Source: a virus (taxonomy: Duplodnaviria; Caudoviricetes). Taken from it: 52,576 bases of DNA. The position numbers and the translations under genes were made by a program. How positions within the stretch are numbered: position 1 is the first letter of the stretch; each line of letters begins with the position of its first letter. Shown piece after piece: positions 17,222 to 44,448 of this stretch. Location: IMG/VR virus record IMGVR_UViG_3300025401_000039, positions 1 to 52,576 of that record; one strand, 5' to 3'. The notes under the pieces were generated by a model. The model was not told where the DNA came from, ran no database searches, and saw only the letters and a program-made list of their open reading frames with translations.

Positions 17222-17505
17222 GGATCCCGACGGGCTAGTCGTTCAGTATGCAGGGCAATTTTCTCTGCAGCAGCCTTGGCTTCGATTTCCAATTCAACAG
17301 CGGCAGCATGTGCACGAGCCGCGGCTGCTTCTGCGTGTTGTCTAGCTTCAGTGGCTGTGTCAATGACTTTTTGATGTGCTTCCGACAGCTGACGTTCTAA
17401 TTGCTCTACGTCATTGACAGCTTTGACGCTGGCTCGCTTGCTTGCGGCAAACAGTTCGGCTAGGTCTGCTGAAATGATATTGTGTAGTTTTGATAGTATG
17501 CTCAT
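17212..17505 (-). CDS. Ala-rich coiled-coil protein
   Basis: GGAG SD; TATAAATA upstream on - strand (17525-17532). Confidence 0.65.
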   Translation of the reverse strand: MSILSKLHNIISADLAELFAASKRASVKAVNDVEQLERQLSEAHQKVIDTATEARQHAEAAAARAHAAAVELEIEAKAAAEKIALHTERLARRDPQL

Positions 17506-17653
17506 GGGATTCTCCAGGGTCAACTATTTATAGGCCCAAGCGGGGCGCAAAAAAATTTTTAATCGGCGAAGCTGCAAGCAAAATTTTTAGTGCGAAGCAC
17601 AGCGGAAAAACGCGAACAAGCGTTCAGCTGTCAGTTGCCGCTAAATATCACAT

Positions 17654-17959
17654 ATGCTAATAAGAGAATTAACTAACAGTCTAAAAGAAAACTGGGTGCA
17701 GAATCATCACATGGGTGCAGGCACGGAACGAGCAAGTGATCAACAGTTGTTGGAATTGGGTGCAGAACCACATGTGCTGGGCAAGCTAGAATCCACGGGC
17801 CGTGTAGTACGTATAGTTAAACGTGAACAACGGGTCAAATTCAGTGAGAAACCCGATTGGATTCTAGTAGACATGGATCTATCTGAAAAGGGCAAAGAGT
17901 TAAAATGGTTGCCCGGTAATACTAGATTCACATGGGTTAGAGAGTTCAATCGCGACTAG
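17654..17959 (+). CDS. Hypothetical late protein
   Basis: TAAATA 6 nt before ATG. Confidence 0.6.
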   Translation: MLIRELTNSLKENWVQNHHMGAGTERASDQQLLELGAEPHVLGKLESTGRVVRIVKREQRVKFSEKPDWILVDMDLSEKGKELKWLPGNTRFTWVREFNRD

Positions 17960-18658
17960 TGTGCTGACATATATTGGCTATAAGTCGATTGGGCTGATCA
18001 CTGTGCGCATTTATACGTTCAATATCTTCTATGGCTAGTTCTAAGGACTGTATACGCTGAGCTTGCGTATAGACACAATCACGTAGTCGACTGGCTTGAA
18101 ATATACTGAGTAATCCAGTAAGTATACGGGGAATAATCAAGTGTGTGTCCATACTAGTATATAGTAAATATACAATGCTAGAAACACTAATGCGATTAAG
18201 TGATAATACATGGATCTATATACTTACTGTGACGCTGTTGGGCCTAGCAGCTTTTGTAGTGGGGTTTCTTATTGGTTGGCTAGTCTAGCCAAAAAGGGTC
18301 CTGCAGGATTGAAAAATTTCTGCGCAAAAAAAATTTGAGAAGTACTTAGCGTTTTTACTGAGAGTAGAATCGGCCTGTTTGACCCGTAATCTTATTGTAA
18401 TCTATAAATAATTATACACAGAACTTATACTGTGACAGGAGGTTTTATGCAGATGATTTCAGAATACTTAGATCACAAGCCTCAAGCAAAATTAATGCAC
18501 AGTGAGAATCCACCAAACTAAGAGTGTTTGATTACTGTTGAACAACTATACGGGACATGCCCGAATCCTTAAGCTCTATTCGTAGGGCTTTTTCACGGGT
18601 GTAATAACAGTAAAAAATAGTAACATGTATAGCATGAGAAGTGGGAGTGTGTTATACT

Positions 18659-18952
18659 ATGAGTATGAAAACACTAATAACAACTGCTTCTATAGTGCTG
18701 TCAGCATGCGGTGCTGGCGCTCCTACAACTTCTGTAAACTCAAAAACATATCCATGTGATAGTCAAATAGTGGCTATAATGGCTACAATGCCAACTCCAA
18801 ACTTATTGGGCTTGGGGGAACCTGATACTACCACTTATACTAACATGGGACAGAACCATATTATGATATATGAGTTTCACTTACAGCATGAACGTATTAC
18901 TTTTGAGTACAATACAAACTACTGTAGTGAACAGGTAGAAATGGGTATTTAG
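18659..18952 (+). CDS. Putative lipoprotein
   Basis: Signal-like N-terminus with LSAC lipobox. Confidence 0.55.
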   Translation: MSMKTLITTASIVLSACGAGAPTTSVNSKTYPCDSQIVAIMATMPTPNLLGLGEPDTTTYTNMGQNHIMIYEFHLQHERITFEYNTNYCSEQVEMGI

Positions 18953-19131
18953 GAATGAAAAAATTGCCCGCGTAAAAAATTATAAAGAAGTACTTAAACT
19001 TTTAGAGGGGTGTTTTTACTTCGGTACCCATGCGCTGTTGCTGTAATACAACAGTTTATAAATGTATATGCCTCCCACCCCTCTCGAAGAAATCTTTTTT
19101 ATTATTATCTCCTCCCGACCTTTTCGAAATC

Positions 19132-19166
19132 AAAAAAAAATCCCCGACCGTCACCGATCGAGGATT
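19132..19166 (-). terminator. Rho-independent terminator closing the early block
   Basis: On - strand ATCCTCGATCG-GTGA-CGGTCGGGGAT plus long T run; G-U pairs work only on this strand. Confidence 0.85.
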
Positions 19167-19168
19167 AA

Positions 19169-19248
19169 AAAAGGTCTTGCCGGGAGCGAATCGGGCTTAT
19201 GGACCTTTTCTGTGACAGCGTTACCGGGAGCGAATCGTTGGCGCTGTC
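19169..19248. ncRNA. Twin hairpins with identical GGAGCGAAT loops
   Basis: Stems AAAAGGTC/GACCTTTT and GACAGCG/CGCTGTC each enclose CCGGGAGCGAATCG. Confidence 0.55.
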
Positions 19249-19286
19249 TGGGTGGGTTACTATATGCTGTACCCTACCCTAAGCTG

Positions 19287-20177
19287 TTATGCGTGGCGCA
19301 TACATGTCATGTCCGCTACAGCTTGCCACTTGTTAGGAAAGCTAACAGCCAAGTCAGCTATCTTAAGTACTGTACGCAAGCTGAGCTCACGTAGACGTGC
19401 TGTGTTGTCTGCTACGAAGTTAACCACATCCAGCTTCTGCTGATCCGTTAAGTCATAGTCATCAAGCATACCACAGTCAGTAACCACTTGTCTAATGCGC
19501 AGGACCTTCTCACGCTCTGTGTCAATAGTTAGATCCAAGTAGTGGCAACGGCTTTCCAATGCTTCCAAGTGATCACGCAGCTTCTTGCTCTTGACGTGAT
19601 CGAACTTGATGTTGGTAATAAAGATAGCGCCGCCTTTGAACTCGAATGAATCAGGCACACCTTCTCTACGCAACAAGCTAGAGTCTGTGTTCCAGTTAAT
19701 GGTACGCTTCTTTGATGTATCCAATGCTGCTTTGAGAATGTTCAAGCTCAAGTCATCAAGTAAGATGCTGTCACAGTCATCAAACACTAAGACGTTCTTC
19801 CGGTCGCTAAAGTGATATAGCTTGCTGTACAAGCCAATGGCACTCATTGCGCCCTTGACCACTTCGTACTTCTTCAGCTTCTCGTCCTGTGCTACATTGG
19901 CGAACACATCATGCTTGGCCAGAACCTTTTCAACACCAAAGCTCTTGCCAACACCTGGAGGGCCTGTGACAATCATTGCTTTGACTTTGCCGCTCTTAAC
20001 AGCACGAGTCATGTCGTCTAGAATCTCAAAGCGATCACGCAAGCGATCCAGGATCTGCTCGTCTGTTTCGCCTTTCAATTTAAGCTCTTTAGCCTTGATC
20101 GCAGCTGTGTCTACTTCCAGTGATTTTGTTTCAGATTGCAGTGCCATAAGCATTTTACTTGTAACTACCTTTGCCAT
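19287..20177 (-). CDS. AAA+ ATPase
   Basis: GPPGVGKS, VLVFDDCD, ITN, ALESR. Confidence 0.85.
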   Translation of the reverse strand: MAKVVTSKMLMALQSETKSLEVDTAAIKAKELKLKGETDEQILDRLRDRFEILDDMTRAVKSGKVKAMIVTGPPGVGKSFGVEKVLAKHDVFANVAQDEKLKKYEVVKGAMSAIGLYSKLYHFSDRKNVLVFDDCDSILLDDLSLNILKAALDTSKKRTINWNTDSSLLRREGVPDSFEFKGGAIFITNIKFDHVKSKKLRDHLEALESRCHYLDLTIDTEREKVLRIRQVVTDCGMLDDYDLTDQQKLDVVNFVADNTARLRELSLRTVLKIADLAVSFPNKWQAVADMTCMRHA

Positions 20178-20284
20178 AAGTCTCGCTCCTTAATGTTAGT
20201 TGATAACGTAATTATACTATCTCTTGCTTCTGCTCGCAAGAATTATGAGCAGAAACATGAGACAGAAATGAATAGCAGTAGCCA

Positions 20285-20605
20285 TTAGTCTAGTCTACTG
20301 CCTGCATAAGCCTTCAAACCTAATGCTGTTAGGTAGTTGGCCAGTGCCTCAGCGCCTGCTTCCTTAACACTCACTGACTGAGTTGGAATCTTTGCTGGAT
20401 CCCAATAGCTCAAGCATTTGGGTTTGTAGTCCTTGCGGAAGCCTGCGGCAATCAATTCCTTGGCTTGCTTGGAGTTAGTACGATCCACGTACACATCCAC
20501 CCAACCAAAACCGCAAGCATCACGCTCGCCAATCTTTTGATACATCTCAACACCTGCGAGATGTGCTAGTACAAAACCTGCTTTGATTTGATCTGCTGTT
20601 ACCAT
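20285..20605 (-). CDS. Early hypothetical protein
   Basis: Own promoter and RBS; ACGFGWV...SRLD. Confidence 0.8.
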   Translation of the reverse strand: MVTADQIKAGFVLAHLAGVEMYQKIGERDACGFGWVDVYVDRTNSKQAKELIAAGFRKDYKPKCLSYWDPAKIPTQSVSVKEAGAEALANYLTALGLKAYAGSRLD

Positions 20606-20648
20606 AGTGTCGCTCCTTATTTGCTGTTGAAGTGTTAATTATACTGTC

Positions 20649-20834
20649 TTACTTACGGGTTGTCAAGCCGTTGATGCCTGCGAAGAACAAGCCCAAGCCT
20701 GCTAAGGCCATAAGGGCTAATGTGAACAATTGACTGTCTGGGGCAGTGTCAATTGTGCCTGACACTCCATAGACTAGAAAGAATCCTACGAATGCTACGA
20801 CTGCGTCGCAGAATGCATATAGTTTATCTGACAT
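20649..20834 (-). CDS. Small two-TM membrane protein
   Basis: Own promoter and RBS; two hydrophobic segments. Confidence 0.7.
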   Translation of the reverse strand: MSDKLYAFCDAVVAFVGFFLVYGVSGTIDTAPDSQLFTLALMALAGLGLFFAGINGLTTRK

Positions 20835-20878
20835 AAGTTTCGCTCCTTATTTGCTGTTGATGTTAGTATTATAGCCTC

Positions 20879-21580
20879 TTAAGCCACTTCTGTCAAGCGG
20901 ATTACGAAGCCTGAATAGTCTTTTTTGGCAGGCCCTTTTGCCTTCAATCCTAACATAATGCCCTTAGGGTCTAAGAAGCGCAGGTCAGTTTCGTCTGCTG
21001 ACGGCACACCCTCTGGGATTTTGTCGTAGACAGCAACCACTGACATGCCTTGCAAGAGTGCTTCTGCTACATCTGCGTCATTGCCGTCTGCCTTGCTGAA
21101 TGTAAGGTGGTAGTTAGGATACATTTTAGTCTTACGACCGAGCACCTTAGTGTAGTCATAGAACTGTACATTAGGGAACATTTCAAAGATGTTCTGCCCT
21201 GGGATAGCATCGTACTTCTCCCAGCTCAAGTCACTAGTACCATTGAGGCGGAACACGGGGATTAATCCTTTGCGCTCTGCGAACTTGATAGCCTTGCGAA
21301 TGTCTGAGACAAGATCCAGCATGAAGTCTGCGCGATTGTTGAAGAAGTATTGGGTCTTACGAATGCGAGCCTTTTGGATCATATTGGTGTTCTCGCCTTT
21401 GCGGAACATGCCACCGCGTCCTGCTTTATTAAGGCAAGCGTCTGTACAACCTTTAGTTCGCTTGGGGCATACTTCGCGTCCGCTAAGATCAGCAGGTGCA
21501 AGGTGTAGGATGAAGCTGAGATAGCCCATCTTTGTACCTTTTTGGATTTTGGGATTCGCTGTAGATAATAGTTTGAACAT
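20879..21580 (-). CDS. Gp88-like phage protein with Cys cluster
   Basis: CP-x5-C-x3-C, RLNGTSD, FYDYTK, YHLTFS, DLRFLD. Confidence 0.7.
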   Translation of the reverse strand: MFKLLSTANPKIQKGTKMGYLSFILHLAPADLSGREVCPKRTKGCTDACLNKAGRGGMFRKGENTNMIQKARIRKTQYFFNNRADFMLDLVSDIRKAIKFAERKGLIPVFRLNGTSDLSWEKYDAIPGQNIFEMFPNVQFYDYTKVLGRKTKMYPNYHLTFSKADGNDADVAEALLQGMSVVAVYDKIPEGVPSADETDLRFLDPKGIMLGLKAKGPAKKDYSGFVIRLTEVA

Positions 21581-21644
21581 AGTTTTCGCTCCAAGTTCGT
21601 TGTTGATGTAAGTATTATACCCTCTTTTGGAGGGTATGTCAACC

Positions 21645-21854
21645 TTAGAGTTTAATTAACTCTGTTGAGCCAATGCTGGCTACTTGAGGGACGATGTTAG
21701 TGAAGGAGGCCTTTACAGGGCGAACTTGAGCACGAACAGTACCTAACTTCTCAACTACCCCAATAACAAGACTACCAGCATTGTGATAGCTGACCATTGC
21801 TACACGATCGCCTACTTTGATCTCTTTACCTTGCATGTCTTTTAATTGTGTCAT
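21645..21854 (-). CDS. Small SH3/KOW-like early protein
   Basis: DMQGKEIKVGDRV; own promoter and RBS. Confidence 0.65.
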   Translation of the reverse strand: MTQLKDMQGKEIKVGDRVAMVSYHNAGSLVIGVVEKLGTVRAQVRPVKASFTNIVPQVASIGSTELIKL

Positions 21855-21910
21855 TTTTCGCTCCTTATTTGCTGTTGATGTTAGTATTATAACGCCTGAG
21901 CGCCATAATG

Positions 21911-22093
21911 TCAAGCACCTGGACAGTCGTTAATATACAACATAGTAACACCATCAAAGGTATCTACTTCTAGCATATCAGCACTCACAGGGCTAGAGTA
22001 CTCCATGTTCATGCCCATATGCACGGGCATGTTGGGATCCATTGTACTCAGGATACGGATCATGTCTGCTACGGTTAGTGTATCGTTTCTCAT
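21911..22093 (-). CDS. Early hypothetical protein
   Basis: Start MRNDT after GGAG SD and promoter. Confidence 0.7.
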   Translation of the reverse strand: MRNDTLTVADMIRILSTMDPNMPVHMGMNMEYSSPVSADMLEVDTFDGVTMLYINDCPGA

Positions 22094-22172
22094 TGTCTGC
22101 TCCTTTTGTTTCTGTATGTGTCTATTATACTGTATTTTGGACACTCAGTCAAATCCCATTCACTTTGGAGGG

Positions 22173-22403
22173 TTAATCCCAATCTTTCTTACCGCCAAAC
22201 TGCTCGTTCCATTGATAGCCTGCTAGGTAGGCTTGGACTTCTTGTGGGCTCATTTGAGCTTCGTTGATACGCTCGCTAGAGCCGGTGTCGCCGATGTAGA
22301 AGTGAGGGCTACGGGGACGATGATACCAACTGTCTGCACTGCCTCTATCAAAAGGCCCGCCGTGTCGTTGATCATAGTTCTTACGGGTTTCTAATGTAAT
22401 CAT
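22173..22403 (-). CDS. Early hypothetical protein
   Basis: HGGPFDRGSADSWY motif; coupled to upstream gene. Confidence 0.75.
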   Translation of the reverse strand: MITLETRKNYDQRHGGPFDRGSADSWYHRPRSPHFYIGDTGSSERINEAQMSPQEVQAYLAGYQWNEQFGGKKDWD

Positions 22404-22774
22404 ACTGTCTCCTTATTGAAGTAACCATAGGGCAAGCCCTGAGTGAAACAGAAATACTCGTAGTCGCCATTGGCGCCTTCAGCATCCATCAACCAAGCAA
22501 TCACTCGCTGACGGTTGGTGCTGGTGTGCATGAGGTTCTCTACACGATCTTCAAATGCCTCAATAGCACGAGCCTCACTGGCCAATTGCTCTTTGTAGTT
22601 GGCTTCGATAGTCCGGCTCAACTGAACGAACTCAGCCTCAAACTCTACTTCTGTCCAATTGGTAGTATCGATACCGCGTGGGCGAACGCCATAGGCATCC
22701 TTATACATATCCCAGTATTGGCAGGCATATTGCTCTAGCACGGACATCTCTTCCCAGCTTTTGAATTCGCTCAT
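22400..22774 (-). CDS. Early hypothetical protein
   Basis: DMYKDAYGVRPRG motif; own promoter and RBS. Confidence 0.8.
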   Translation of the reverse strand: MSEFKSWEEMSVLEQYACQYWDMYKDAYGVRPRGIDTTNWTEVEFEAEFVQLSRTIEANYKEQLASEARAIEAFEDRVENLMHTSTNRQRVIAWLMDAEGANGDYEYFCFTQGLPYGYFNKETV

Positions 22775-22946
22775 TTAGTGCTCCTTTTGTGTCTGTATGT
22801 AAGTATTATAGCAAAGTCTAGCCAAATTGTCAACAACCTTACAGGATGAAAGGGTATTATAGACACGCCCAGCCTTGCCGTCCATCCCGTTGCCTTCGAA
22901 TCATAATTATACTGGATTGGGCGGGGATTGTCAAGTCGTCAAAACC

Positions 22947-22979
22947 AAAAAAAAACGACACATCTTTGGGACGTGTCGT
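22947..22979 (-). terminator. Terminator after tRNA
   Basis: ACGACAC...GTGTCGT stem plus T run on - strand. Confidence 0.75.
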
Positions 22980-22987
22980 CTGTGTAA

Positions 22988-23062
22988 TGGTGGGCCCACC
23001 TGGGTTCGAACCAGGGACCAAGGGATTATGAGTCCCCTGCTCTTCCGCTGAGCTATAGGCCC
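22988..23062 (-). tRNA. tRNA with CAT anticodon, probably tRNA-Ile2 (lysidine type)
   Basis: GGGCCTATAGCTCAG...GACTCATAATCC...GGTTCGAACCC...CCACCA; arm sequence resembles bacterial ileX. Confidence 0.9.
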
Positions 23063-23068
23063 TTGTTC

Positions 23069-23263
23069 TTATCCTATTGGATTGGTATTTCGATAACGTC
23101 TAACTTCTTGTAAGTCATCATCCGTATCTTCTAAGATCCAAATCTCTTCGTTGAACTCTAGCAGATCTTCTGCTACTCGTTCTGCTTCCTTTAGGGTTGG
23201 AACACATTCGAGGAGCTCTTCATGCCCCTCGAATAGTCCCCAAACTTCAAACTGAATGAACAT
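23069..23263 (-). CDS. Small acidic hypothetical protein
   Basis: 64-aa ORF. Confidence 0.6.
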   Translation of the reverse strand: MFIQFEVWGLFEGHEELLECVPTLKEAERVAEDLLEFNEEIWILEDTDDDLQEVRRYRNTNPIG

Positions 23264-23266
23264 AGA

Positions 23267-23629
23267 TTAGAAAGGGATGTTTTCGTCCATGTCAGCTGTA
23301 GGAGCCTTAACAGCCTTAGGTGCTGTAGCCTTAGCTGGCTTCATAACACCCTTTGCGGCAGGCTTAGATGTCTTAGCCTTAGGAGTGTTCTCAGCAATAT
23401 ATTCGGTGATAGTTGCCTGAGCAATTGAATCAGCGAACTCGTCCAACCCCAATAGGATCTTAGCGGCATCCATCTTTGAAACTGAAGCTTCAAGATCAGC
23501 CAAGCGAATGTCAGTATGTCCTGACTTGGCAAGAACCTTAATACGCATCATGTCATTGGCAAAGCGAACTTTGTATGTACCATTCAAATTAGAAATACCT
23601 GCAACCTTAAACAATTTATCTGTAGCCAT
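23267..23629 (-). CDS. Hypothetical protein with Lys/Ala-rich tail ending DENIPF
   Basis: GAGG SD and promoter; SSB-like C-terminal tip. Confidence 0.75.
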   Translation of the reverse strand: MATDKLFKVAGISNLNGTYKVRFANDMMRIKVLAKSGHTDIRLADLEASVSKMDAAKILLGLDEFADSIAQATITEYIAENTPKAKTSKPAAKGVMKPAKATAPKAVKAPTADMDENIPF

Positions 23630-23715
23630 TTTGTTACCTCTGTGTGTGTTAAAAAATATGTTATTGAGCCAATCTCTCTAACATGTTCAAATTATACAAC
23701 TCTTTTGGCGAGTTG

Positions 23716-23976
23716 TCAACCGTTTCTTTTGCGTTTTGGGCGAATATTTGACTGTTGTTCTTTTACAACAGGTCCAAACTCCTTGTTCGTGTAGTAGATA
23801 ATCAAGCTACGCTGAATCATTGTAACCAAATCACCATGATCATCATCCACTACGAACCTAACAGGGCATTGCCCCCATGAGCCTGTAATGGCAAAGTTAT
23901 GATAGTATGACCTATGATCCTTATTCTTAGCATCAAAAACTACGAACGGACGTCCAAATAGTGCGAGTCTACTCAT
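23716..23976 (-). CDS. Early hypothetical protein
   Basis: FDAKNKDHR...WGQCPVRF. Confidence 0.7.
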   Translation of the reverse strand: MSRLALFGRPFVVFDAKNKDHRSYYHNFAITGSWGQCPVRFVVDDDHGDLVTMIQRSLIIYYTNKEFGPVVKEQQSNIRPKRKRNG

Positions 23977-24089
23977 CGTTTTTCACCCATTGACGGATCA
24001 CAGCCTCCAGCTCTTTGAATTGGTATTCGGGCTGTTTGGGTCTAACCTTGTCTTGTTGCTTGGCATCGTGTGCTGTGTTGAGTTCTTTA

Positions 24090-24665
24090 TTAGTCTTCAT
24101 TTTCTTCTTCTTCGTATTCTGCAATCGTTTCTGATATCCCAAACATTTCGTCTAGGGCCTCTGGGATAGCCTCTTTGACAGTCTCTGAAGTGTAACCGCC
24201 AATGTCATAGCAGTCATCTTGGCCGTCTTCCCAAATACCAGCAAATGCCATGCCGGGCTCATAGTAGTAGAGCCTGACTGTGAACCCTTGTTCTATCAAA
24301 TACTCCATAGCACCTGTAGGTGGGCTCCATGCTGAGTCAAAGCCAAAGGTAACATGATCTACATCGCCTTCTAGTTCAATGGTTTCAATGGCATCCACAT
24401 CCCATTTGGTGCCCCACTCATTCACACACCAGTCGTACCAATTGGCATAACCATAGGTGCTGAGATTGTGCATGGTCTGCTCTTGCAGAGCAATCTGTTT
24501 AGGATCGTTGTCATCGCCTACGCGACCCGCTACAATCTGTAGGGCTTCTGGCACTGGCTTGCAGTAGTTCAAGAACTTGCCTTCATTAACCGCCGCAACC
24601 AACTCACGAATCTTGGCTGGGTCGCTGTGTGTGATCTCTACTGTGTTATTGCACCAATTTGGCAT
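24090..24665 (-). CDS. YubB/DUF1281-like ferredoxin-fold protein
   Basis: MPNWCNN, WYDWCVNEWGTKWD, FDSAWSPP, YYEPGMAFAG. Confidence 0.7.
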   Translation of the reverse strand: MPNWCNNTVEITHSDPAKIRELVAAVNEGKFLNYCKPVPEALQIVAGRVGDDNDPKQIALQEQTMHNLSTYGYANWYDWCVNEWGTKWDVDAIETIELEGDVDHVTFGFDSAWSPPTGAMEYLIEQGFTVRLYYYEPGMAFAGIWEDGQDDCYDIGGYTSETVKEAIPEALDEMFGISETIAEYEEEENED

Positions 24666-24666
24666 A

Positions 24667-24933
24667 TTAAACTCCCATTTCAGAAAATGTTACTTTAGGA
24701 TCAATGCTGAGCAACTCGCTAGCACAACGAGTAAGATTACGCATCTTTGCACGAACCACTGACGCAGGCAGTTCGCCATCGCAGGTAAGGTTCTCTGGGC
24801 TCATTTCGCTGTCAATGCTGTCAGCGATGGCCTGACGATCTGCACCGTTCAACAGGCTCAAAGGCTTTTGATTGAATACGGCTCGCCACTTGTTCTTGTT
24901 CTCCACATATTGCTCTAATGTTGCTATGTTCAT
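24667..24933 (-). CDS. Early hypothetical protein
   Basis: SPENLTCDGE motif; own promoter and RBS. Confidence 0.75.
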   Translation of the reverse strand: MNIATLEQYVENKNKWRAVFNQKPLSLLNGADRQAIADSIDSEMSPENLTCDGELPASVVRAKMRNLTRCASELLSIDPKVTFSEMGV

Positions 24934-24968
24934 CTTCGCTCCTTTTTGCTGTGTAAGTAGTTATTATA

Positions 24969-25205
24969 CTAGAGTTTCCTAATCCTGTCAATAACCATGT
25001 TCGCTTCATGGTAATTGTCGGACAAGGACATTTCAGCTTCGATCTTCAATGCTTGAGCCTGCTCACGCAACTCCTGGCTAAAAGCGTTTAAAAGCTCGTG
25101 TGCGTAGTCGATATCATCTGCTGATACCTTACTATGCCAATCTTTAATCGTTGCTTCGTCGGCGTTTAAAAGGAACTCCAAATTAGCCCGATCATGCTCA
25201 TTCAT
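24969..25205 (-). CDS. Early hypothetical protein
   Basis: Likely start MNEHD. Confidence 0.65.
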   Translation of the reverse strand: MNEHDRANLEFLLNADEATIKDWHSKVSADDIDYAHELLNAFSQELREQAQALKIEAEMSLSDNYHEANMVIDRIRKL

Positions 25206-25389
25206 AGTCGCGTCCTTTGTGCTTTTTGTTGCGTTTATACAACACCTTGCTCTCCACCCGTTTGGGTTTGAAGGGCGTGTTCTCCGCAAAGAGAACAAAG
25301 TGTGCTCTTGTCTTTTGTGGTACTTTGATTACAATCTTCATCTCGCTCTCCTTACTATGTCATTATTATAGCAAATTGAGCAGAAGTTG

Positions 25390-25572
25390 TCAACTGTTGA
25401 TGGTCTGATAAGGACTGTGCTCTTCCTCGTCAGCGGCTACATTCACAGCCTCTAACCAATCGTACACCATGCTCAAAGGGATGTCCAATTGAGCCGCGAT
25501 GGATGTGGGCCTGTAGCCCTCAATGTACAGTTGCTCAATATCGTATGCTACTTCTGCTAATTTACTCATCAA
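25390..25572 (-). CDS. Small HTH protein
   Basis: SIAAQLDIPLSMVYDWL. Confidence 0.6.
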   Translation of the reverse strand: MMSKLAEVAYDIEQLYIEGYRPTSIAAQLDIPLSMVYDWLEAVNVAADEEEHSPYQTINS

Positions 25573-25828
25573 AGGCCTCCTCGCCCATTTCAGTTACTCT
25601 TTCTTCCACAACGCCAAGGTCGACGATGCGGGCTGTTTGATCTTCGTTGCTCACGCCCTGAAAGGCTGTACGGAATGACTGATACTCAGCTAGGAAGTCT
25701 AATACATCCTCACGCTCCCAAGTATCAGGAACTTCAAGTTCTTGTGTTAGTAGTGTTTCAACTCGTACTATTTTCATACCTGCTCCTTTAGAGTTAGCCA
25801 TTGCTCGTTTACTTTGAAAGCCTGTCAT
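25562..25828 (-). CDS. Early hypothetical protein
   Basis: ORF in early block. Confidence 0.6.
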   Translation of the reverse strand: MTGFQSKRAMANSKGAGMKIVRVETLLTQELEVPDTWEREDVLDFLAEYQSFRTAFQGVSNEDQTARIVDLGVVEERVTEMGEEAFDE

Positions 25829-26104
25829 TCTGCCTCCGCTGGTTCAAACATACGAGCACCCATATCCATAAAGACGTCGAAGGTCTTAAGGAAGTCCTCA
25901 TCATACTTGTGACGGTTAACTTTAATGGCAAACAGGCCTACTAGGAGGTCTCCATTGCCTACTTCTTTCGCTACTTTTACTAGATGATCAAACATAAGTT
26001 TCGCTCCTTATTGTGTTAATATGTCTATATTATAACGCAGAACTGCTACTACGTCAACCGAATTAGATTGGACTTACATCAGCTTTCGCATGAATGCCTT
26101 AACT

Positions 26105-26179
26105 TGGCGCCGCAGATGGGAATCGAACCCACCTAAGTCTCGCAGACAACGAGTTACCCTCCCAGAGAGCTACTACGGC
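26105..26179 (-). tRNA. Atypical tRNA-Asp(GTC)
   Basis: GCCGTAG/CTGCGGC acceptor, GGTTCGATTCC T-arm, loop TTGTCTG, G discriminator plus CCA. Confidence 0.75.
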
Positions 26180-26183
26180 AAAT

Positions 26184-26251
26184 TGGCGTCCCTACAGGAG
26201 TCTCACCTGCTCACTGCCCTGAGTTGCGAACTCAGCGTGGATTCCCGGGAC
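26184..26251 (-). ncRNA. D-armless tRNA-like RNA
   Basis: GTCCC/GGGAC-GCCA acceptor, CTGAG-TTCGCAA-CTCAG arm, GCAGG-TGAGACT-CCTGT T-like arm. Confidence 0.6.
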
Positions 26252-26259
26252 ATAAACTT

Positions 26260-26470
26260 CAGTTAGAAAAGAACTAAAGGAACCATTGTAGATCTATCTC
26301 TACCACAGGGCAACGTCTGCCTCTGGGCCTCTACGGTCATTACTGCCTACATACTCCGCCGCTACTCCGGATTGCTCCTGTTTCATGCCCCAGCGTCAAG
26401 CGTATCCGTCGATACTGTCCTCTATCTGGGCGCCTAGCAGTGTAGGTAACCTTTAATACTTTTCTAACTG
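26260..26470 (-). ncRNA. About 210-nt structured ncRNA candidate
   Basis: 21-bp terminal stem, internal hairpins, own consensus promoter, no SD after +1. Confidence 0.65.
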
Positions 26471-26641
26471 TTCATGTGCTTATTATAGCACATGAACTAG
26501 TCTCTGTCAATAACCTTACTGTTTGTGTGGTATCTCTTTTGGAGCACCAGGAGCATTACAGCTCTTCAAACCCGCAAAGTGCCATTTTCTACAATAAGTA
26601 CATTCCATTGACTGCTCCTTTGTTGCTAAGTGTTTATTATA

Positions 26642-26980
26642 CTACTCTTCTACTTCTTCGTCAACCACTTCGTTCAAGTGATCAAAACAATCTTGTACAC
26701 GACTTGATTCTGTGTTGAAGAAAGTATAGCTACCACAAGTAACCCTACCTTCGCCCTCATTGATGTACTCAAACCCACCATAGTAGTCGATGGCGCTAGA
26801 GTGTGTAACAGCAATAACCTCTTCATTCCTGTCAATGTACACAGGACCACAGCGCACATCCAAACCCAGTTCAATGGGCGTACAGCGTTCCATCTTGCGT
26901 ACATGACGCTCCACAACCTCATTAACACAATCAATCATGTCCAGGGTTGAATCAAAATCACAATCTGTAAAGTATCCCAC
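26642..26980 (-). CDS. Early hypothetical protein
   Basis: GTG start after GGAGCGA; own promoter. Confidence 0.75.
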   Translation of the reverse strand: MGYFTDCDFDSTLDMIDCVNEVVERHVRKMERCTPIELGLDVRCGPVYIDRNEEVIAVTHSSAIDYYGGFEYINEGEGRVTCGSYTFFNTESSRVQDCFDHLNEVVDEEVEE

Positions 26981-27057
26981 GGTTCGCTCCTTAGTAACTT
27001 AAAAACATAGTATACAACAGAACGGGTACCTTGTCAATACCCGTTCAAGTTGCAGGG

Positions 27058-27549
27058 TTATTCTGCGCACTCCTTTGGGTTGAGTTTACGAATAGCTGGG
27101 GCTAGCTTCTTCCAACGCCCGCCCATCTTTTTGTAGTGCCACTCGCCCGACTGATAGTCGTCTGATGCTTTGTATTTGTAAACATACAAGTACTCGCACC
27201 AGCTACCCTCAAAGTAGTCTTCTGCTTTTTTAAGCGAGGGGAACACTTTAAACGGAGCTGTCTCGCCTCTGTCGCGTGTGTAAAATGTACACTGATTGCC
27301 GTAGAGCTTGTCCCATTCCTCGTCTGTCAACTTAGTATCCAAACGACTAAACGGATGCTCTGCGCCAATCTCAGGGCGCAGGGAGCTAATATCGCCCAGT
27401 GCAATCAAGTTGTTGACTTTGGGACTAGCTGAATAATGCTTTTGAAGAATAGCGCCGTTGTGTTCCAAATACCCGTCCCAGTGACAATAAACTGCGCGAA
27501 CAGTTTTGTTGTAAGGGTTTTGGATAGCAATCATTGAACGTGTACCCAT
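27058..27549 (-). CDS. Conserved-type phage early protein
   Basis: MGTRS...YCHWDGY...GDISSL; own promoter and RBS. Confidence 0.8.
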   Translation of the reverse strand: MGTRSMIAIQNPYNKTVRAVYCHWDGYLEHNGAILQKHYSASPKVNNLIALGDISSLRPEIGAEHPFSRLDTKLTDEEWDKLYGNQCTFYTRDRGETAPFKVFPSLKKAEDYFEGSWCEYLYVYKYKASDDYQSGEWHYKKMGGRWKKLAPAIRKLNPKECAE

Positions 27550-27603
27550 TTATCGCTCCTTAATGTGTTTAAGTGTTAATTATAGCAACTTCTAGCCAAA
27601 CTG

Positions 27604-27813
27604 TCAACCGCAAAACACTTCTTTAGACAAGATCCGGTCCTCAACCAGCTCGTGTGCCAAGTTAAGGGCCATAGTGGCGCAAGTGATAGCAATAATGCGC
27701 TCTTGCCCATTAAAGCGTTGACAGTACTCCATCAGCTGGTCCAAGCTCTCTGGGGTTGCAAACAATCCGGTCTTTGGGATTGGGTTTTGAACAACGTCGT
27801 AAATGCCTGACAT
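27604..27813 (-). CDS. Early hypothetical protein
   Basis: Own promoter and RBS. Confidence 0.75.
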   Translation of the reverse strand: MSGIYDVVQNPIPKTGLFATPESLDQLMEYCQRFNGQERIIAITCATMALNLAHELVEDRILSKEVFCG

Positions 27814-27870
27814 AAGTATCGCTCCTTTTGTTAGTTGATGTTAGTATTATAGTTGAAACCTGGTTAGTTG

Positions 27871-28095
27871 TCAACCAAAGTACTTGTATAACCCTATTGC
27901 GCAAATGGTTATTGACACGCAATTTGTCAACGTTTGTGGCCAGTTGCGCACACGTAAGCTCCATATCATGTACAGCGTTCCCCCACAGAACCCTGCCAGT
28001 ACGCTGTAGCTGTTGTACTCAGGGAAGAACGACATTAATGTATACATGCACATGAAGCAGGCCGTGCCGGCCCACTGCACTGCGTTATTAAACAT
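27871..28095 (-). CDS. Small membrane protein
   Basis: Three short hydrophobic segments. Confidence 0.6.
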   Translation of the reverse strand: MFNNAVQWAGTACFMCMYTLMSFFPEYNSYSVLAGFCGGTLYMIWSLRVRNWPQTLTNCVSITICAIGLYKYFG

Positions 28096-28312
28096 CTAAG
28101 TCAAACTCCGCATCCTCTACTACTGTCTCTAACTGTACAGCTAGCGTCTCTAGCATCTCTTTGCTTAATGTGTCAAGTGTCTCGTCATAAAAGTGTTGCA
28201 TTAAAGCCGCATCTAGTGCTACATGCCCGTCTAAATAGTCAAGCCCGCTATCGCCCATGTCGTAAATTTTCCCAAATGCTTTATTAATGCGTTTTACTAG
28301 TGCTTTTGACAT
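28088..28312 (-). CDS. Early hypothetical protein
   Basis: Own promoter and RBS. Confidence 0.75.
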   Translation of the reverse strand: MSKALVKRINKAFGKIYDMGDSGLDYLDGHVALDAALMQHFYDETLDTLSKEMLETLAVQLETVVEDAEFDLDV

Positions 28313-28402
28313 TGTGTCGCTCCTTTGTTGCTATGTGTGTATTATACTGTCGTTATCTCAAATTGTCAATAACCCTACGCACTGTAGGGCTATTTGTTGT
28401 TA

Positions 28403-28663
28403 TTAGTCTACAAAGACTATGTTGTTACTGCGTATAGTATTGACAGCGTGGGGTAGTACTTTAGCTAACTCTTCTTGTAAGTTTTCTGCAAGTAAGTCCC
28501 CACTAACATACGCACATTTTGCTTGTGTTGGGAACGCATATTTTACTACTTCTGTATTACCAATTTTTTTAATTTGCTTGTGTGCGTTAAACGCGACTAC
28601 GAGCTTGTATGCTTGTACTTTTTTGTTATAAACTAGTTTAGCGTGTGCAAGTGTGTTAAACAT
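28403..28663 (-). CDS. Early hypothetical protein
   Basis: Own promoter and RBS. Confidence 0.7.
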   Translation of the reverse strand: MFNTLAHAKLVYNKKVQAYKLVVAFNAHKQIKKIGNTEVVKYAFPTQAKCAYVSGDLLAENLQEELAKVLPHAVNTIRSNNIVFVD

Positions 28664-28741
28664 AAGAGCTCCTTTTTGCTGTGTATGTGTGTATTATACG
28701 GCATTTTGGGCGGGCTGTCAATAACCCGCCACACAGTAGGG

Positions 28742-29056
28742 TTATATGCAACAAAAAGCATTACTGGGAATTAAATTATTACTTTCTATGTACTGTAGCA
28801 CCTCTATGTAGTACTCCCGTACAAAAGTGTCCTGTTGCATAATACTATCGTGTAACTTTTGCACATTATTGTCCGTATTAAATGCCGCTAGCGCATTAAT
28901 ATTATACTGTATGTCTAGCGTGTGGAACTGTAAATTGTCCACTGTAATGGGCCTGTTAACACCGTGTTGTGTAGTACTAAAGTCTATGTAATCCTGTGTA
29001 GTTTTAAGTACTAGCATGTTAATTTGTAGTTTATGGGCGGGTGTTAGTTTACGCAT
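28742..29056 (-). CDS. Early hypothetical protein
   Basis: Own promoter, AAGGA SD. Confidence 0.7.
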   Translation of the reverse strand: MRKLTPAHKLQINMLVLKTTQDYIDFSTTQHGVNRPITVDNLQFHTLDIQYNINALAAFNTDNNVQKLHDSIMQQDTFVREYYIEVLQYIESNNLIPSNAFCCI

Positions 29057-29128
29057 TGTATTTCCTTTAAAATTGTATTATACAACATTTTGGGCCGACT
29101 GTCAAAGACCCTGCCGACCTCATGGGAT

Positions 29129-43861: not shown

Positions 43862-44448
43862 CAAATATTGCGTGGTCAGGTGGAGAAGAATATCGCTCCA
43901 AATGTGTAGTAGGATTAGAAAGAGACGGAGTTCTAAACGAATATTTAGACTACTGTGCCAAACCAGATGATTTCAAAGAGATACCTAATAGCATACAGGC
44001 GGTAGTTACTCTTAGAAACAAAGGCTACAAAATTGTTATCATTACAGATCAACGGGGTGTTGATCAAGGTCATATGACCAAGGAAGATGTTGAAGCTGTT
44101 AATGATGTTCTAATGCAATCATTAGGCAAAGCAGGATGCTTTGATATAGATGGACTTTATTACAGCATTGGAACAACTAAACCAGATCCTTGGGTTAAAC
44201 CAAATACAGGTATGTTCAAACGTTGTGAAAAAGAACATCCAGATATTAAATTTAAAACAGGATACTATGTTGGACATACAATCAGAGATCTCAAAGCCGC
44301 TGTCGCTGTTGGTGCTAAACCTGTATTAGTTCGTACTGGCAAAGGTGTTGAAACAGAGCAAGAATTAACCAAATGGACTTATAGAGAACTTAAAAAACGC
44401 ACTATTATATTTGATAACTTAGATGAATTCGCCAAGTATATGAAATAG
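43858..44448 (+). CDS. gmhB: GmhB/HisB-N-like HAD protein with altered catalytic residues
   Basis: LERDGVLN, KPNTGM, VGHTIRDL, LVRTGKG. Confidence 0.7.
   Translation: MTNIAWSGGEEYRSKCVVGLERDGVLNEYLDYCAKPDDFKEIPNSIQAVVTLRNKGYKIVIITDQRGVDQGHMTKEDVEAVNDVLMQSLGKAGCFDIDGLYYSIGTTKPDPWVKPNTGMFKRCEKEHPDIKFKTGYYVGHTIRDLKAAVAVGAKPVLVRTGKGVETEQELTKWTYRELKKRTIIFDNLDEFAKYMK

Follow-up and report, generated by a model that had tools for sequence, protein, structure and literature searches.

P1/P7 c4 RNA and the F-plasmid RNA FinP, the latter with FinO, block translation through two loops or hairpins complementary to a ribosome-binding region, CpxQ and SdhX are small RNAs (sRNAs) derived from 3' untranslated regions (UTRs), and CsrB and RsmZ are decoy RNAs for CsrA and RsmA, the hairpin recognized by CsrA being A(N)GGA. 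CisR is described as a further 3'-UTR-derived sRNA (PMC13250501). As presented in PMC2837412 and PMC2790875, conserved unpaired C-rich or anti-Shine-Dalgarno (anti-SD) loops of RNAIII, the Rsa RNAs and CyaR bind several mRNAs at their Shine-Dalgarno (SD) sequences. In phage T4, RegB acting with S1 is reported to inactivate many early mRNAs through their GGAG SD soon after infection, with GG*AGRAYARAA as the consensus of its strong sites (PMC3014915); T4-type phages also carry PeSL cassettes, the layout of which is described in PMC4122927 and which are likewise a subject of PMC2839356. Here we analyze a twin-hairpin element in a 52,576-bp IMG/VR fragment (IMGVR_UViG_3300025401_000039; “the window” hereafter means this whole stretch), which is a fragment of a freshwater jumbo phage. 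The element displays in two loops the complement of a ribosome-binding site (RBS) shared by early genes and, as judged from comparison of related loci, is probably a conserved 3'-UTR/terminator module of early (- strand) transcripts in a freshwater jumbo-phage clade.

Our preferred explanation, to which we assign a probability of roughly 45%, is an anti-RBS RNA embedded in the 3' UTR and terminator that would occlude the early RBSs; it is the best supported because on the early-mRNA strand loop and RBS relate to each other only by complementarity. As far as the reports cited above cover them, Staphylococcus aureus RNAIII (hairpins 7, 13, and 14), RsaE and Escherichia coli CyaR are alike in repeating a short unpaired anti-SD motif in two to three loops, some of them terminator-proximal, with varying helices around a fixed motif and with the SDs of several mRNAs as targets (presumed here). 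The element differs from them in carrying an exact 7-nt complement of a bespoke extended SD (GGAGCGA), in lying inside the 3' UTR and terminator of a phage early operon instead of a stand-alone sRNA gene, and in that its presumed targets, known from sequence alone, are the phage's own early genes, including the carrier transcript. With 3'-UTR-derived sRNAs it shares a seed upstream of the mRNA's own intrinsic terminator, making the regulator a by-product of mRNA synthesis, but the seeds here are in loops and not in a single-stranded stretch, and the discrete 3' fragment is putative. Unlike c4 RNA and FinP, which have one cognate target nearby or opposite, the loops here face several unrelated genes with an RBS in common. 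The proposed outcome, early mRNAs silenced at a GGAG SD, is that of T4 RegB; RegB, however, is a protein nuclease, of which an RNA counterpart is proposed here, and its consensus does not fit these sites, the base after GGAG being C in 95% of 551 cassettes. Regulators derived from 3' UTRs and those that display an anti-SD in a loop are kinds already known; what is new is the location at the terminator of a phage early operon, the private extension of the RBS and a presumed action of the element on its own early regulon, no description of the element having been found in a literature search that left supplements outside its scope.

Structure of the element and its match to the early RBSs

On the + strand of the window, the 14-mer CCGGGAGCGAATCG occupies 19180-19193 and 19224-19237, each copy at a hairpin tip, and no further copy was found in the 52.6-kb record at up to two mismatches. 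Read along the - strand, the stop codon of an AAA ATPase gene (19287-19289) is followed by a hairpin of non-conserved sequence, hairpin 2, hairpin 1, a terminator hairpin and a U-tract (Table 1). In both hairpin 1 and hairpin 2, an outer stem of 7-10 bp is separated by an internal loop from a closing stem of 2-3 bp, which carries the 9-nt loop AUUCGCUCC (GGAGCGAAU on the + strand), the core of which reads UCGCUCC in early-mRNA sense, the complement of GGAGCGA. Both strands form the hairpins on folding (-56.7 kcal/mol for the + strand and -56.9 kcal/mol for the - strand, with z values of -2.6 and -4.5, respectively), and in the folded 3' UTR the loops have probabilities of being unpaired of 0.96 and 0.86. 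A G+C-rich stem-loop followed by a U-tract, as expected of an intrinsic terminator, is found both in the window (19166..19139 plus T7) and in relatives, in most of which hairpin 1 is itself the predicted terminator, with U7-U8 directly after it.

The window contains 14 copies of the 7-mer GGAGCGA, where 2.48 would be expected (standard deviation, 1.74; 0 of 100 shuffles reached 14), as the 2 loop copies on the + strand, the RBSs of 11 promoter-proximal early genes on the - strand, and a single - strand copy at 43893 with no start codon after it. These counts bear out the observations of the original prediction, a reading of the window's letters, which had seen two loops on different stems identical to the RBS of 11 early genes and had placed them between the last early gene and a - strand terminator: the 14-mer stands at 19180 and 19224, all 11 RBSs were found with an ATG or GTG 2-5 bases downstream, and the 12-bp hairpin 19166..19139 carries its T-run. 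Upstream of the 11 RBSs there is a TATAAT-like hexamer in every case and a TTGAC-type hexamer in 10. Duplexes of the loops with the 11 early initiation regions are predicted at -13 to -16 kcal/mol, compared with a median of -7.1 kcal/mol for 68 initiation regions. As in anti-SD RNAs, an SD-complementary, unpaired, and conserved motif is matched by sites at the RBSs of several mRNAs.

The repeated early unit reads TTGACA-17-TATAAT, a C/A-rich leader of ~20 nt, AAGGAGCGA, and a start codon, and 15 sigma-70 promoters scoring 12/12 (TTGACA-17-TATAAT) lie on the - strand within 8.5 kb (20638-29105). Only two strong - strand terminators were found in the window (22981..22953 and 19166..19139), so the - strand promoters from ~22934 to 20239 all read into the element. 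The 11 RBS units resemble PeSL cassettes in that a near-consensus sigma-70 promoter (a near-perfect TTGACA-N17-TATAAT) is followed, after a short leader, by an SD and the start codon, an arrangement repeated through an ORFan-rich early region; hairpin 1 followed by the next promoter, in a co-directional subgroup of relatives described below, has the PeSL layout as well. The stem-loop pair nevertheless differs from PeSLs in that the genome has only one such pair, associated with a single gene, and the account in PMC4122927, as far as it is used here, does not describe stem-loops with a loop complementary to the cassette's own SD. Several of the 15 promoters have a small PeSL-like hairpin at or before the -35 box.

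Among relatives, 313 of 755 TTGACA/TATAAT cassettes continue into GGAGCGA, which is the commonest 7-mer at 70 of 77 loci. A matrix of 551 distinct GGAG-anchored cassettes gave A(-1) 0.89, C(+4) 0.95, G(+5) 0.76, A(+6) 0.73, and A(+7) 0.64, making A-GGAG-CGA-A the preferred early RBS of the clade. No leader position upstream of A(-1) exceeded 0.8 bit, and the RBS signal is thus not merely a result of common descent of the cassettes, since the leader elsewhere carries little information. The canonical 16S tail is known to pair only with AAGGAG. The dedicated CGA code that had been suggested stands in part: the C after GGAG is general to the clade, late genes included, and the extension is mainly GA. 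Copies of AGGAGCGA in complete relatives are concentrated on the strand of the hairpins, in the ~10 kb immediately upstream of them; G003 has this cluster at 87657-97782 with the hairpins at 99088-99168, and in G001 the cluster wraps around the record ends.

Conservation and covariation in relatives

An exact scan of viral contigs for the 14-mer matched at least 118 stretches; among the matches listed, 11 beyond the window's two loci had two copies 43-81 nt apart on unrelated stems. Unbiased relatives were retrieved through the neighboring AAA ATPase (best 80 of 153; 68-90% identity) and through two more scans from divergent members (best 80 of 171 and best 80 of 176 relatives). All three kept sets were at least 67% identical to their own query and had many contigs in common. 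Downstream of the ATPase gene, the loop 9-mer GGAGCGAAT was present at 79 of 79 loci with at least 300 nt of flank, twice or more at 69 of them, which shows that the element did not arise by chance in a single sequence, and the module recurs behind this gene in ~170 related viral contigs; hairpins numbered two at 86 of 94 distinct loci, one at 5 and three at 3. In every hairpin seen, GGAGCGA (UCGCUCC) was invariant, and the kept loci of the three scans included no lineage whose loop 7-mer differed. The surroundings of the 7-mer change: the outer stems have no common sequence, the closing stems covary (CCG/CGG, GUG/CAC, CUG/CAG, CGG/CCG, GCG/CGC), and the two 3'-most loop bases (+ sense), usually AU, vary rarely (UU in L135, L229, L263, and L272; GU in L190 and L205). 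At one locus, L218, each loop consists of the bare 7-mer and the stems, of 7 and 9 bp, are perfect, compared with the 9-nt loops of the others. A 7-mer that stays fixed while its surroundings change fits base pairing by sequence alone better than recognition of a shaped hairpin.

The stems are conserved as structures. Across 30 distinct gap-free sequences of hairpin 2, all 7 outer pairs had changed on both sides with 97.6% of cells paired, and the covariation score was 0.77 against 0.21 when shuffled (0 of 500 shuffles reached the score; slid controls were 24-38% paired). For hairpin 1 (43 distinct sequences), 9 of 9 outer pairs had changed on both sides (score, 0.76 versus 0.18), and UAA (mRNA sense) was invariant in its 5-nt bulge RUAARY (19196-19200 in the window; 43/43). 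Both hairpins carry a frame that reads CCA..CAA in mRNA sense and UUG..UGG in + sense. In relatives with 70-82-nt spacing (e.g., L124, L125, L138, L153, L174, L175, and L186), a middle hairpin stands between hairpins 1 and 2, with a conserved + sense loop UUGCC(U/G)UGUUGGCG that corresponds to the hairpin 2 frame without GGAGCGAAUC; a related loop occurs in the extra terminator of L130, L132, L133, L154, and L185.

The 11-mer GGGAGCGAATC occurs in two to three copies per genome in the five near-complete relatives. These copies are the hairpin pair (in G002 and G004 only one hairpin has that exact closing base) and, in four of the five genomes, an extra copy located at, or immediately upstream of, the RBS for a 93-amino-acid (aa) membrane protein (phrog_18771). 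Scanning genome contigs for the twin pattern returned one mis-binned relative labeled as an Ignavibacteria metagenome-assembled genome (MAG; L285), together with two high-G+C bacterial MAG contigs (L283 and L284) that were rejected as unrelated, being 76-84-nt tandem repeats with the 14-mer inside a different palindrome, CGATTCGC..GCGAATCG; these are a caution for searches by pattern only. A 61-aa + strand open reading frame (ORF) running through hairpin 1 was rejected by eye as coding, because in relatives the position of the 14-mer relative to the reading frame varies or the frame ends prematurely, and the ATG that follows the first loop is not kept.

Strand of the hairpins

The comparisons indicate that the hairpins are probably structures of the early mRNA (- strand). 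The pair invariably comes after the stop codon of the ATPase gene. Of 94 distinct loci, 80 have a T-run of at least six residues 3' of the last hairpin on the early-mRNA strand, and none has one on the opposite strand. In the co-directional subgroup (L205, L207, L209, and L211-L221), the U-tract runs directly into a TTGACA..TATACT..GGAGC..ATG cassette; the + strand module of the window (see below) is absent there, no + strand promoter context is present, and the hairpins are kept. In the variable stem of hairpin 2, the mRNA sense has 12 G.U cells versus 0 in the + sense and 97.6% versus 91.9% of cells paired, hairpin 1 has 12 versus 5 G.U cells in its outer six pairs, and a tally of transition mismatches in transition-tolerant helices stands at 44 versus 11 (binomial P ~ 9e-6, for related sequences whose events are not independent). 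If the hairpins are indeed on the early-mRNA strand, the shared frame is a conserved CCA..CAA internal loop.

The opposite assignment would make the element an RBS mimic, that is, a + strand RNA that shows GGAGCGA(AU) in two loops and titrates a reader of RBSs (a phage protein, or the 30S subunit, perhaps with a phage-encoded bS21). On this view the fixed loops would represent the best site, from which the RBSs depart as weaker forms adjusted gene by gene. The frame beside the closing stem (UUR..UGG) pairs in + sense only, in 30 of 30 hairpin 2 sequences, and lengthens both stems on that strand. The inner three pairs of hairpin 1 have 34 G.U cells in + sense versus 13 in mRNA sense, and the mean minimum free energy (MFE) is slightly lower for the + strand (-17.3 versus -16.5 kcal/mol; + more stable in 72 of 123). 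Loops that remain fixed while RBSs drift would fit a shared third partner, the convergent subgroup has a conserved module with an ATAAAT box upstream on the + strand, and hairpin 1 of window-like members lies between an A-run and TTTT, so + strand transcripts could end there. All five near-complete relatives (G001-G005) encode bS21 (PF01165; 57-70 bits), and at the two loci read (L366 and L367) no SD precedes it; PMC9723584 describes a freshwater bS21 phage group that may include members of this clade. Nonetheless, + strand U-tracts after the pair are lacking throughout (0 of 94 loci), the + strand upstream of the pair in the co-directional subgroup is the antisense of an early gene without a promoter-like module, and the C.A mismatches of the variable stems on the + strand are G.U pairs on the other. 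We judge a + strand mimic quite unlikely.

Candidate readers were sought by family. CsrA (PF02599) was not found in the five near-complete related genomes, its control having matched in three known genomes, and neither RegB (PF10715) nor RegA (PF01818) was found in those five genomes, control genomes being unmatched for both as well. Several hairpins with GGA-containing, RBS-like loops would resemble CsrB and RsmZ only if the + strand were the RNA; unlike in those decoys, the loop and its flanks do not fit the A(N)GGA hairpin, and the GGA loops are confined to the strand that has no terminator. Pfam and PHROGs searches of 20 early ORFs returned no RNA-binding family reaching the cut-off. A 69-aa early protein with DUF7205 (PF23835; precomputed labels, Atlas), encoded at 21645-21854 on the - strand, matches Phage_ProQ_C_like weakly and below the cut-off (E = 0.0066; 17.5 bits versus 27) and is a lead for an RNA chaperone. 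Searched against Rfam, the whole window gave one match at the gathering score, a tRNA at 22991-23062, and 17400-19400 at E values up to 10 gave at best 14-19 bits against thresholds of 43-100, which is chance level.

Of the two models in the original prediction, then, early transcripts ending in two anti-RBS loops are favored by the U-tracts, the co-directional subgroup and the G.U bias, with accumulation of the RNA and shut-off of the early regulon still predictions of the model. The extra + strand G-U pairs on which a decoy was proposed are real and kept, but the decoy itself is weakened by the strand evidence and by the negative CsrA search. The underlying observation is confirmed and extended.

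Proposed pairing with early RBSs and competing explanations

According to the anti-RBS reading, the U-tract after the last hairpin (or after an extra one, as in the window) would terminate transcription, and a nuclease-resistant 3' end would accumulate from the many early promoters that read into the terminator. The loops would then pair with the SD region of early mRNAs in trans, or alternatively in cis on the same transcript, which would keep the 30S subunit from binding and so curb or stop the translation of early genes. The 7-nt seed would be held fixed by its many targets, with each RBS free to tune its own match. A fuller version, in which the private SD extension AGGAGCGAA of host-takeover genes and two exact-antisense loops form an RNA-only translational timer, is doubtful as a whole: the stable terminator fragment would accumulate and shut off the entire early set, at least one late-promoter gene (with an 11-nt match) could also be held back, and together with the bS21 of the clade this would amount to phage-specific control of initiation.

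Beyond the + strand pairing and stability described above, several observations weigh against the anti-RBS reading. Loop and RBS are co-conserved but show no compensatory covariation, contrary to what had been looked for across relatives. Where RBSs drift the loops remain unchanged: the cassettes of L218 have GGAGCGA in 1 of 8, GGAGCAA in 4, GGAGCAC in 1, and none in 2, and the RBSs of L205 and L213 have diversified (GGAGCNN). The ATPase gene's own RBS is GGAGCGA at just 38 of 54 distinct loci. GGAGC is moreover a general strong RBS of the clade, including a late gene, and the loop-specific match consequently adds effectively two bases (GA; 0.76 and 0.73) beyond a generic CUCC/GCUCC. The twin-pattern scan of genome contigs gave no clue to the host. 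Two lake metatranscriptome runs (searched as contigs; 5-7% of words) yielded contigs at 88-95% likeness over 19287-21500 only and none over 18000-19286; the gap over the hairpins speaks neither for nor against pairing because the stems differ between relatives.

The late gene is that of the 93-aa membrane protein (phrog_18771), which stands behind an ATAAATA-type late promoter. Its upstream region contains GGAGCGA in 25 of 68 distinct cases, and its RBS equals the loop over 11 nt (GGGAGCGAAUC) at 8 of 68 distinct loci (set L286-L365; also L201-L204). Should the loops work by base pairing, this would be the target with the best match.

Alternatively, the pair may be a terminator or 3'-end module of the early strand whose loops serve something else (an RNA-binding protein, a nuclease site, an exonuclease barrier, or termination efficiency), the RBS match being incidental or secondary. 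Terminator polarity and 3'-UTR position are solid on this account, the lack of loop/RBS covariation is accommodated, the weak ProQ-C-like match of the early DUF7205 protein points the same way, and the invariant UAA bulge, the CCA..CAA frame and the middle hairpin without the loop motif resemble recognition elements rather than pairing seeds. The chance that a loop 7-mer matches the complement of the commonest RBS is, however, ~4e-4 by our estimate (3 seven-mers x 2 orientations/16384), and loop size, closing pairs and bulges are not kept in L218, which argues against recognition of shape. We regard such a module as unlikely. Recognition of duplex DNA is another way to account for a 7-mer that follows roughly half of the early promoters at constant spacing and recurs at the block end: a protein would bind GGAGCGA after each early promoter and twice, inverted, at the end of the block, as an operator or roadblock. 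Duplex recognition gives no reason for the motif to sit at the apex of hairpins with covarying stems, and the G.U asymmetry points to RNA, leaving a DNA-level site highly improbable.

Genome arrangement bears on two further ideas. In T4 genes e and soc, an RBS is available in transcripts from the gene's own promoter and silenced in read-through transcripts. By the same logic, the loops could silence in cis the GGAGCGA RBS of the next gene on read-through transcripts, with own-promoter transcripts, which lack the hairpins, being translated. The co-directional subgroup, with a GGAGC-type cassette within ~100 nt of hairpin 1, has the layout for such a filter, but most loci, the window included, are convergent with no downstream gene on that strand, so it cannot be the general function and is very unlikely as an explanation of the element. 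HK022 put-type antitermination uses two stem-loops just downstream of an early promoter, acting on RNA polymerase before distant terminators; a processive antitermination RNA was rejected here, the pair being at the 3' end of the unit, where it adjoins or is the terminator, and not just after an early promoter.

Source phage, early block and neighboring features

The window has a G+C content of 40% and an estimated CheckV completeness of ~14%, and the five near-complete relatives are 265-383 kb long. Its UvsW-like helicase is 50-56% identical to jumbo-phage versions (Phosso, Atu_ph07, PA5oct-like), and the DNA runs containing the stretch are labeled as freshwater metagenomes. Megablast of 18000-21000 against a collection of phages gave no match to cultured phages, and blastn of 18950-19300 gave a sole match of 29 A/T-rich nucleotides in T4-like phages. 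The closest cultured homologues of the AAA ATPase are PA5oct-like (44% identity), with co-directional genes downstream, and no comparable locus was found in a phage with a published transcriptome.

Coordinates of the element and of the early RBSs are collected in Table 1. Nearly all early ORFs behind the 12/12 promoters lack a Pfam family. Two tRNA genes lie within the early block on the - strand, tRNA-Met(CAT) at 22988-23062 and tRNA-Asp(GTC) at 26105-26179, the former followed by the terminator 22981..22953. Most replication and other + strand genes of the window have a weak SD or none, and several have TATAAT(A)/ATAAATA-like boxes just 10-25 nt before the start codon.

Table 1. Positions in the window of the twin-hairpin element, its associated gene and the early RBSs
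Feature	Position	Strand	Remarks
U-tract of intrinsic terminator (A-run on +)	19132..19138	-	T7
Extra terminator hairpin, 12 pairs	19139..19166	-	Two wobble positions G.U on -, C.A on +; window-like subgroup only
Hairpin 1	19169..19209	-	Outer stem, 5' bulge RUAARY, 3-bp stem CCG/CGG, loop AUUCGCUCC at 19183-19191 (+)
Hairpin 2	19214..19248	-	7-bp covarying outer stem, internal loop CCAA/GYAA (mRNA sense), CG/CG stem, loop AUUCGCUCC at 19227-19235 (+)
Third hairpin, ATPase stop codon to hairpin 2	19250..19279	-	Sequence not kept across relatives
AAA ATPase gene	19287..20177	-	phrog_1250, homologue of T4-type NrdC.10-class genes; element always 3' of stop codon
RBS GGAGCGA of ATPase gene	20183..20189	-	Motif and start codon
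RBS GGAGCGA, early cassette	20610..20616	-	Motif, start codon, promoter
RBS GGAGCGA, early cassette	20840..20846	-	Motif, start codon, promoter
RBS GGAGCGA, early cassette	21586..21592	-	Motif, start codon, promoter
RBS GGAGCGA, early cassette, gene for DUF7205 protein	21858..21864	-	Motif, start codon, promoter
RBS GGAGCGA, early cassette	24936..24942	-	Motif, start codon, promoter
RBS GGAGCGA, early cassette	26001..26007	-	Motif, start codon, promoter
RBS GGAGCGA, early cassette, GTG start	26984..26990	-	Motif, start codon, promoter
RBS GGAGCGA, early cassette	27553..27559	-	Motif, start codon, promoter
RBS GGAGCGA, early cassette	27819..27825	-	Motif, start codon, promoter
RBS GGAGCGA, early cassette	28317..28323	-	Motif, start codon, promoter

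On the + strand beside the element, a conserved module occurs twice in the window (18296-18440 and 18940-19075) and in most relatives of the convergent type. It consists of GGGTCCTGCAGG .. AAAAATT-GCGC-AAAAAA-TATAAAGAAGTACTTA, ~65 nt that include a UUCG hairpin and another hairpin for which relatives have different palindromes, and TATAAAT(G)TATAT, and may represent either a late-promoter/terminator unit or a gene for a small + strand RNA. Between this module and the A-run lies a C-rich, G-poor tract (19066-19131, +) with CCCCGACC/CCGACC repeats, of which relatives have up to 4-6 copies; AGAGGGGTG (~19006) is complementary to CACCCCTCT (~19082). The tract, absent in the co-directional subgroup, may contain iterons, act as a rut-like site or belong to a + strand RNA. 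A small + strand ORF (18669-18952) with a lipoprotein-signal-like N terminus (..LSAC..) ends where the second copy of the module begins.

Implications for early gene control

If the anti-RBS reading is true, the element would be a regulon-wide anti-RBS RNA located in the 3' UTR of a lytic phage, and the odd “CGA” spacer of the early RBS would be an address label and not noise. A private RBS paired with an antisense terminator would also add a compact, portable pair of parts to the RNA regulators, and as the promoters are perfect sigma-70 consensus sequences, the pairing idea is testable in E. coli reporters. Even without such pairing, what remains is a structured 3' end that is strongly conserved among lake jumbo phages of an abundant clade. 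If the loops do pair, the element would offer a simple answer to how early protein synthesis is shut off in the many T4-like and jumbo phages without RegB.

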